Below are positions 61,746 to 64,000 of a stretch of DNA of 64,000 nucleotides, in pieces. The position numbers were made by a program, and so were the translations under genes. Source of the DNA: Zootoca vivipara (Eukaryota); the NCBI RefSeq assembly GCF_963506605.1, contig NC_083281.1, positions 57,164,001 through 57,228,000 on the forward strand. The letters run 5' to 3'. Below the pieces are notes generated by a model, which worked only from the letters and a program-made list of their open reading frames with translations, did no database searches and was not told the DNA's origin. Positions within the stretch are counted from its first letter, which is position 1; every line of letters begins with the position of its first letter.

Positions 61746-62453
61746 GGTGGGGAACCTACTGTGGCCTTCCAGATGTTGTTGGACTTCAACTCCCATCAGT
61801 CCCAGCCAGCATGGCCAACAGCCAAGGAAGGTGGGAGTTAGGGCATATCTAACAACAGGGCTAGGTATAGACTCTAACTGGGACTTCTGGAGTGCACATG
61901 GGGTAAATCTGCATCCTGCAACTGCAGTCCAATGAAAGACCTCAAGACATAGCAACTTAATCTGATTTTTAGGTAGTTTAAACATTATTATCATTGTACC
62001 TTGAACTTTATAAAGTCAGCTAATTGTGCTTCCCTGCTTTACAGATTTTAACTTGCAAATCTCCATGATGGACTTTAATGGAATTGCTCCAGTGTAAGTG
62101 ATTTTATGATTGCAGCTATTTTTATCCCCAAGCCGACACTGGTTATTGACATTTGTTTGTGTTTTCTTGATAAAGCAAAATAAATAAGGAACAGCAGCTT
62201 ACATAACACCTTCTCTTGTGCCGAATGCGCTGCGCTGAGCCTCCTGTTCTCCTTCTTGCTTTCCACATAATTCCTTCCCATTGAATAGCTGCTTGAGTCT
62301 TTCCCCAGATACATTAGCCTGCATTATCCAGCTTGTAGCTCATTTTATTGCCTGTCAATATTTCCAACTTCCCTGGGTTGCTTTGTATAATTTCTTTCCT
62401 CCTTGGTATTTCTAACACTTCTGAGTCCCCCCCCCCCTTCCTGCTTTCCACAG

Positions 62454-62584
62454 GCTTGCTCATTACCCTTCAGAGTGGTAATTAAATTAAAGGTGTTAAC
62501 TAAGGCTCAGTCACCCCACACCCCTTGCTGTTCATCATGATTGCTGCCTTTTGTTTTGGTGCTTTCAAAACTTGCTCACCAAGG
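62454..62584 (+). other. Candidate internal exon (131 nt), non-coding or ATG-bearing
   Basis: Branch-like TCTAAC (62411), long polypyrimidine tract, CCACAG|G acceptor, AGG|GTGAGC donor. Stops in all three frames from the acceptor. Confidence 0.45.
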
Positions 62585-63129
62585 GTGAGCACCTTTCCCA
62601 TTCCACTCCGGTCTAGAAAGAACATGTCCGAAATGGCAGCTGCATTTCCTTTCGGCTTCATCTCAGCAGGATGGAAACTGGCACTGCCAAGCAGATATCC
62701 AGAGGCAGGTAGATAAGGGATGTGGCTTTGGGACCCAGGAACCTGGAGGAACACCTGCACCCAGCTGCCTGCCACACTATGGCCACTTTTAGAGGCCCCA
62801 CCTGCTTGAGGGGAGGCAAGTGGTAAAGACCTCTTTATTTGTGGGAGCCCAGCCATCAAGAAGCTCTCCTGGTTCCTACAGTTTCTGTCCTTCTAGCACT
62901 AGGCAAAGGCTCTTTTTTACTTTCTCAGGATTTTTGAACCTCCTGTGATGCTGACTTTAATGCTGCTAAAGCAAATGCGTTTTGCTGTTTTAGGCAAAGT
63001 CCAAACCATGGCACTGTCCTGCAGAGATCCTAGAGCATCCAAGCTGAGATCCATCAACATGGGCAGTTGAGCAGACACAGCACCTCAACTCTGCTGCCTT
63101 TTTATACTTTGCATGCTGGCTGCAGCATC

Positions 63130-63317
63130 TGTGATACAACACGAAGGCACAGAAATAACCAAAGTCTAAATATATTGACAGGAAATAAGGTGAACGCAAA
63201 GTACATGCGATACAGGTTGGGTCAGTCGCATGTACTTTGCGTTCACCTTATTTTCTGTCAATATATTAAGACTTTGGTTGTTTCTGTGCCTTCGTGTTCT
63301 GCCTGTGTTGTATCACA
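63130..63317. repeat. Long near-perfect inverted repeat (73-bp stem, 15-nt loop)
   Basis: 63138-63210 pairs with 63226-63298 with 3 non-Watson-Crick positions. 63130-63142 also matches 63305-63317. Confidence 0.97.
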
Positions 63318-64000
63318 TTTGAACTCTGCACGTTTTGGCAGCATTGGCCCATTGTTTTGGCTTTGGCTGCAGCATCTGGGCTTGATGTAGCATGTGACCC
63401 TCACCTGTTCCAAGCCTTCTCCAGCTGAGGAATCACACCCCTCCTCCCAGAGCTAGTGAGCCCCAGCTGGCCAGCTAGTGAGCTGGGCTGTGGGCCCTTG
63501 CCTGCTTCAGCCCTGCCCGCTGCTCCCCTCTTCTCAGAGCCCACCGTGTTTGTGGAGACAGGGGACCCTCTGGCTGAGGCGATGGGTTCTGCTGCTCTGG
63601 TTCCTGTGCACTGATCCCCATCTCCTCCTCATCCTCTGTCACCCTGTGAGTACTTCCTACACCAATCTCTCCTTTTCCATCTCCAGCTTGCCCCAGTGTG
63701 TCCCAGTCCCGGCTACAGCCCTTGCTGGGATCCTCTTCCTCCTCTTCCTCTTCCCTGTAGTCTTGCCAGTTAATGGCACTCTGAAGAACCTATTAGTGTA
63801 TTAATTAAAAAACAAAATAGAGCTAGTTTAATATTGGCAAAACTGAACATTCTCTTTGTTCGTGTTGATAGATATACATTTGCTGCACATGTAGACTCTG
63901 TCATTTAAAACAAACAAGTGTATTTTATCACCAGAAATTAATTCCCTGTTTTGAAGGCATTTTTTTTCTTCTGGTGGTTTTTAAAAACATTTTATTTAAA

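Follow-up and report, generated by a model that had tools for sequence, protein, structure and literature searches.

The hairpin and its parts

The window analysed here is a 64,000-nt stretch of the Zootoca vivipara assembly GCF_963506605.1 (contig NC_083281.1, positions 57,164,001 to 57,228,000 of the forward strand), and close to its right-hand end lies a long hairpin inside an older repeat (Table 1). The geometry of the hairpin is as the preliminary description gave it: two 73-nt arms (63138-63210 and 63226-63298), 96% complementary and spaced by a 15-nt loop (63211-63225), deviate from each other at exactly three sites (63156/63280, T:G; 63168/63268, A:A; 63182/63254, G:T) and are extended by an outer 8-bp stem across an 11-nt bulge (63299-63309). 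The 15-bp direct repeat said to bracket the structure (63117-63131 and 63364-63378) is also present, twice in the window and nowhere on the other strand. Caution had been advised over the wobble pairs, and rightly so; two transitions would produce G:U on a chosen strand with a probability of one in four, and these pairs hold no signal.

Two features had been overlooked. The element ends at 63366, 68 nt past the right arm, and what had been called the "loop" is simply the next stretch of the same family sequence, on the minus strand. Given that 63226-63366 matches a dispersed family and that the loop continues it on the minus strand, the insert consists of two copies of one end. We consider it very probable that a Penelope-like family left two of its 3' ends here, joined head to head in a 232-bp insertion between the copies of a 15-bp target-site duplication (TSD); the insertion likely arose in a single event and is likely inert.

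Table 1. Coordinates of the insertion, its target and the comparable sister-family site
Feature	Position	Strand	Remarks
Host repeat, left part	62990..63131	.	older, high-copy, LTR-like; left boundary approximate
Left TSD copy	63117..63131	+	last 2 nt also compatible with the element end; single in 11/11 host-repeat paralogues
Left arm, inverted tail-less pseudo-LTR (pLTR) 3' end	63130..63225	-	includes the 15-nt "loop" 63211-63225
Private 11-nt deletion, left arm	63137/63138		between two GTGTT repeats
Right arm, second copy of the pLTR 3' end	63226..63317	+	reaches the point at which a tail-less copy would end
One-sided tail, about 45-49 nt	63318..63366	+	spans the interval separating the two end points that the family prefers; final 3 nt equally compatible with the TSD
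Right TSD copy	63364..63378	+	junction in X1 contig
Host repeat, right part	63364..63779	.	joined to the left part in paralogues
Sister copy L056, in another copy of the host repeat	L056:700-713 and 2988-3002		G000:C3:49341123-49345436

The bulge reflects the left-arm deletion. Where element and target meet, two to three bases on each side are compatible with both, and the central junction is blunt, with neither microhomology nor a palindrome. Divergence between the arms amounts to 3 of 81 sites (95% interval 0.8-10.4%). One variant (63264/63172) is common to both arms and absent from all 35 other arms, so the two arms share one source; no other exact match to the left-arm stretch was found. 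The three mismatches all belong to the right arm, and two of them agree with the family copy L002, a pattern that both later mutation and a second template would fit. The left arm is nearest to copies L021 and L034, and the outer right arm to L002. The window copy contains no ribozyme; it ends some 10-20 nt before the hammerhead-like motif described below would be reached.

Short-read contigs support both outer junctions. The left junction is bridged without differences in a contig from a second individual of another study (X5, 63081-63167; depth 41, against 48 in unique flank), which also carries the 11-nt deletion of the left arm, and the right junction is bridged in a contig of X1 (63337-63423; depth 31, against 29.5), possibly the same sample as the assembly. 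The notion of an assembly artefact, or of a local replication-slippage inversion of unique DNA, could appeal to the central junction, for which no bridging contig was seen among the pieces listed. Both outer junctions, however, occur in short-read contigs, one of them from an independent sample; the arms differ by three sites and the 11-nt deletion, each arm abuts its own TSD copy, and the same build recurs at 11 other loci, leaving this account with a negligible probability. The local template-switch duplication of unique DNA that had been offered earlier as one of two origins is likewise unsupported, because the arms, the loop and the right extension all match a dispersed family.

A dispersed family of Penelope-like elements

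A search of the genome, in which all 34 candidates were scored, returned 79 matches at 30 places including the window, and a second query added no further family locus (eight duplicate loci are left out of all family counts). Window positions 63226-63366 are about 89-96% identical to the 29 other loci. Judged from the sequences linked to it, the repeat is the 3' end (pseudo-LTR) of a Penelope-like retrotransposon. A same-sense GIY-YIG ORF lies upstream of it in 6 of the 29 other loci (tblastn); a GIY-YIG domain scores above the Pfam cut-off in two of these sequences (L031 and L042), and in L042 it is preceded by reverse transcriptase (RT) motifs with a weak RVT_1 hit (E 0.001, below the Pfam cut-off). 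In a sister family that is 80% identical over 1.3 kb, RT and GIY-YIG are both above cut-off within a single ORF. Among the loci recovered, none is an intact, full-length member of the exact family seen in the window, and the RT/GIY-YIG ORF is missing from the truncated window copy. The 870-aa ORF of L033 was considered as the family's own and rejected, as it belongs to another element nested in a family copy; this nested element (L033:2159-4984) has an open RT plus GIY-YIG frame and a hammerhead-like motif of its own.

The ORFs of L031, L042 and L046 carry, by eye, a CX2-5CxxC linker. Such a linker between RT and nuclease is described as a trait shared by Neptune and Nematis (PMC8557442); it would thus fit Neptune, but does not separate Neptune from Nematis.

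The family has moved through RNA. A 96-nt GT-AG intron is exactly excised in 13 of the 29 loci, kept in 10 and not reached in 6, and such exact excision implies an RNA intermediate for the family. The pLTR region of several copies (the L031 3' UTR, L014, L016, L013 and others) has two introns; the ORF-linked copies that were checked retain the second, which most short stubs lack, a pattern that copying of stubs from the 5' end of spliced RNA would produce.

Upstream of the matched part, a hammerhead-like core with three helices can be read by eye, with 99% of cells paired and two compensatory changes, both from a single sister copy. Its score was equalled in 4 of 500 shuffles, for a structure derived from these same sequences, and a comparison of 10 loci with Rfam detected no hammerhead at E<=1.

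The sister family (L046-L060, L080-L109), for which the best 40 of 268 first-look candidates were scored, is young, with many copies 99-100% identical at the pLTR end, and forms tandem and head-to-head arrays. Its copies also have an upstream 250-aa ORF that overlaps the RT-GIY-YIG ORF in another frame and has no Pfam hit. A further open frame, of 1,091 aa and LINE-like by eye, lies some 7-10 kb downstream on the minus strand of L039 (equivalent to window numbering 70709-73981).

Head-to-head ends across the family

The build of the window copy is a habit of the family. Two outward-facing ends occur head to head in 11 of the 29 other loci, and the tail is restricted to one side in all 11, as it is in the window. 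Of the 41 ends at the 29 loci, 20 map to 63350-63368 and 16 to 63310-63330, one of these 16 being a break that a nested insertion caused; the other 5 lie elsewhere. Among the 11 head-to-head loci, the TSD measures 14-17 bp in nine, is degenerate in one and was not found in one; over the family, a 14-17-bp TSD is seen at 14 of the 29 other loci and no clear TSD at 14, where some far ends may fall outside the fetched stretch. Inner lengths run from 63 to more than 2,300 bp with 5' truncation, many copies are single-ended, and arm identity in the other copies is 94-100%. The pLTR repeats are inverted in 11 of 29 loci, and tandem units occur in the sister family. Of eight sister-family pairs, seven have the tail on a single side and five have an adjacent 11-15-bp repeat.

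These observations bear directly on whether the hairpin could instead be a MITE or foldback DNA transposon whose long terminal inverted repeats are flanked by a long TSD. Inverted arms, a TSD and dispersed copies would suit such an element; its ends, however, would not be expected to be unequal and variable, nor its lengths to vary with 5' truncation, nor many copies to be one-ended, and above all introns have been spliced out of copies, and the linked ORF encodes RT and GIY-YIG and no transposase. The spliced copies and the linked ORF refute this reading, which we regard as having almost no chance of being correct. The preliminary description fared well on this point. Its suggestion of an unrecognised foldback insertion with a long TSD holds, the insertion now being identified as a Penelope-like stub, and its separation of the hairpin from the hAT and Tc1 MITEs is likewise supported. 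It had also named many copies of a known MITE family as a sign against its reading; in substance that sign is present, the many copies belonging to a Penelope-like family in place of a MITE.

Target site and host repeat

The 15-mer is a true TSD: it is single-copy, with the two halves of the host repeat contiguous, in 11 of 11 fetched paralogues of that repeat, which serve as the equivalent of an empty site (the best 40 of 781 first-look candidates were scored). The host repeat itself is probably LTR-like, as suggested by the TG...CA ends with short inverted repeats in its paralogues. An orthologous empty allele was not seen in the contigs searched. A 247-bp skip at 85% likeness (X1, X5 and X12) was weighed as an empty allele and rejected; as it is not listed at 96% in X1 or X5, it is taken to represent host-repeat paralogues. 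Contigs of two relatives gave no cover over 63155-63325 at 85% likeness, which in contigs does not show absence, and no relative's contig bridged the orthologous site.

A second copy of this host repeat was hit by a sister-family element, L056, which follows the same nucleotide as the window insertion, shares its orientation and has a 14-bp TSD. By rough arithmetic on a pattern noticed after the fact, the chance of such a coincidence is near 2 in 100,000 (30 ends, about 750 repeat copies as a lower bound, 3 positions, 1.44 Gb, both strands). It is tempting to speculate that these Penelope-like families prefer a tail-mimicking site in an abundant LTR-like repeat, and that the stub may also record priming by two RNAs, and yet we hold this to be improbable. 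A match of at least 6 nt to the tail motif was found in 8 of 19 flanks, against a background of about 25% (P 0.08); the test omits 5 of 24 rows, namely the two sites from which the idea came and three sister pairs that lack a true TSD. None of the other 29 loci of the family lies in the host repeat, which holds a single one of the 30 sister ends, and a search for further sister-family junctions at the shared site gave a single match, L056 itself. A thin literature search found no preference of Penelope-like elements (PLEs) for this kind of repeat, the named PLE targets being microsatellites and 28S rDNA in the sections of PMC8557442 that list them. If true, a target preference for another repeat would extend the few cases of targeted PLEs.

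Is the hairpin a small-RNA locus?

The preliminary description considered that, if the hairpin lies in a + strand pre-mRNA, about 550 nt after a candidate exon, it would be a strong Drosha/Dicer or ADAR substrate and a possible newborn miRNA or endo-siRNA locus. The predicted hairpin is indeed highly stable on both strands. Positions 63100-63400 fold at -166.8 kcal/mol on the + strand (z -21.7) and at -147.7 kcal/mol on the - strand (z -14.7), with none of 100 shuffles equal in either case, and folding as DNA gives z -23.8. Co-option of the stub as a hairpin-RNA locus in a + strand transcript could further draw on the left junction being near full depth in a second individual, and on small RNAs reported from Penelope copies in a rotifer (PMC3846280). 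Nevertheless, several observations speak against it. No host gene was identified: none of 105 stop-free frames of at least 55 aa within some 6 kb on either side had a Pfam hit, a scan that short exons would escape, and the acceptor AG of the candidate exon (62452-62453) is changed by G>A in another individual of the species. The 96% arm identity is ordinary for the family (94-100%), the hairpins of L014, L005, L016 and L003 are far more stable (-287 to -546 kcal/mol, against -136 kcal/mol for the window copy), and the Rfam miRNA match is generic, at 74 bits against a gathering score of 211. Two RNA runs chosen by species label (X22 and X23, about 6 in 100 reads each) had no reads on 62000-64000, which counts neither for nor against transcription, as the comparison covered that stretch alone. 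A small-RNA role of the hairpin is possible but unsupported, and we rate co-option as very unlikely.

Another family copy, L014:1003-1635, is 98% palindromic over 600 bp and carries a pair of opposed hammerhead motifs. As a source of double-stranded RNA, it would be a far better candidate than the window copy.

A possible order of events

The layout of the window copy probably arose as follows. The GIY-YIG nuclease would have nicked both strands of the older repeat about 12-15 bp apart, and the reverse transcriptase would likely have extended both freed 3' ends on pLTR RNA. The left arm would have been primed from the tail-less start and the right arm from a start about 45 nt further on, hence the tail on that side. 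Both copies would have halted after about 100-140 nt, before the hammerhead motif, and would then have been joined back to back, with the stagger filled in as the TSD. Such an order of nicks and primings finds a parallel in PAc, an element that, in the in vitro work described in PMC11167929, cuts and extends both target strands and has two adjacent internal RT start sites, by which the tail is defined. The choice of start site in vitro is, however, described as alike on both strands (PMC11167929), and so the one-sided tail in 11 of 11 loci is not explained by that alone. A further point against this order of events is that the right-arm mismatches, two of which match L002, fit a second template less simply than one.

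Alternatively, element and insertion may be the ones described and the second arm the product of self-priming or fold-back, in which the first cDNA, or else an antisense RNA, primed on itself and was copied. The variant common to both window arms and found in none of the 35 others would suit such copying, as would the arm pairs of L016 and of L032, in each of which both arms share private variants, and the short palindrome at the junction of L017; self-priming has been suggested for palindromic junctions (PMC3846280). Shared variants are equally expected, however, if both RNAs came from one source locus, and the window junction has no palindrome. Moreover, the right arm has the 49-nt tail and 11 nt that are missing from the left, and the left has 15 nt that are missing from the right, so that neither arm is a plain copy of the other. 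On balance, self-copying appears rather unlikely, and we favor separate priming of the two arms at the two nicks.

Comparison with known systems

Priming at both nicks is familiar from LINE-1 elements, in which twin priming leaves an inverted segment inside the TSD. The two segments of a twin-primed LINE-1 are different parts of one RNA, and hence form no hairpin. In the window copy, by comparison, the same 90 nt have been copied twice, and there is no poly(A).

Among PLEs the layout is already described, and the present instance is ordinary. An inverted pLTR, a one-sided tail and a TSD make up the typical Penelope footprint as portrayed in PMC3846280 and PMC8557442. A close likeness is to insertions of endonuclease-bearing PLEs such as Pen2a_Av from the rotifer Adineta vaga (PMC3846280; a general scheme is given in Fig. 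2 of PMC8557442), in which a 5'-truncated copy directly adjoins an inverted 5'-truncated copy; insertions of this type, as described in PMC3846280, also share a tail at one end only, a TSD of variable length and an internal deletion bounded by microhomology. Unlike those insertions (PMC3846280), the window insertion has both copies cut to about 100-140 nt, so that no ORF and no hammerhead are left, and its junction is without a palindrome. The TSD of 15 bp compares with 8-10 bp in the rotifer examples given there (PMC3846280), and the tail of about 45-49 nt with the 30-40 nt quoted for such insertions (PMC3846280, PMC8557442).

PAc, a Poseidon element of Anolis carolinensis, resembles the present family in having two end points about 45 nt apart in genomic copies, which in PAc match its two internal RT start sites (PMC11167929). 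PAc also has a hammerhead in the pLTR (PMC11167929), with which the motif read by eye here may be compared. The PAc starts lie inside the ORF, and the sister-family tail stops, by eye, immediately ahead of the upstream ORF's first methionine. In contrast to PAc as described in that source (PMC11167929), the TSDs here are not markedly AT-rich, and the ORF carries the CX2-5CxxC linker, a Neptune/Nematis trait.

In Schistosoma, truncated PLEs are described as leaving minimal hammerheads that oppose each other at distances of 100-700 bp (PMC4209133). Short head-to-head pLTR remnants are common to that case and the present family, in which the longer copies L014 and L005 have two opposed hammerhead motifs; the window copy has no ribozyme.

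In the genomes of non-mammalian vertebrates, a long perfect hairpin accompanied by direct repeats of 14-16 bp can be a Penelope stub, and not a MITE or a new miRNA. The formation of inverted PLE structures is still called open in PMC8557442, and the 30-copy family described here, together with its young sister, provides a natural data set on how such structures form, with clean TSDs, a one-sided tail, and spliced and unspliced copies to compare.
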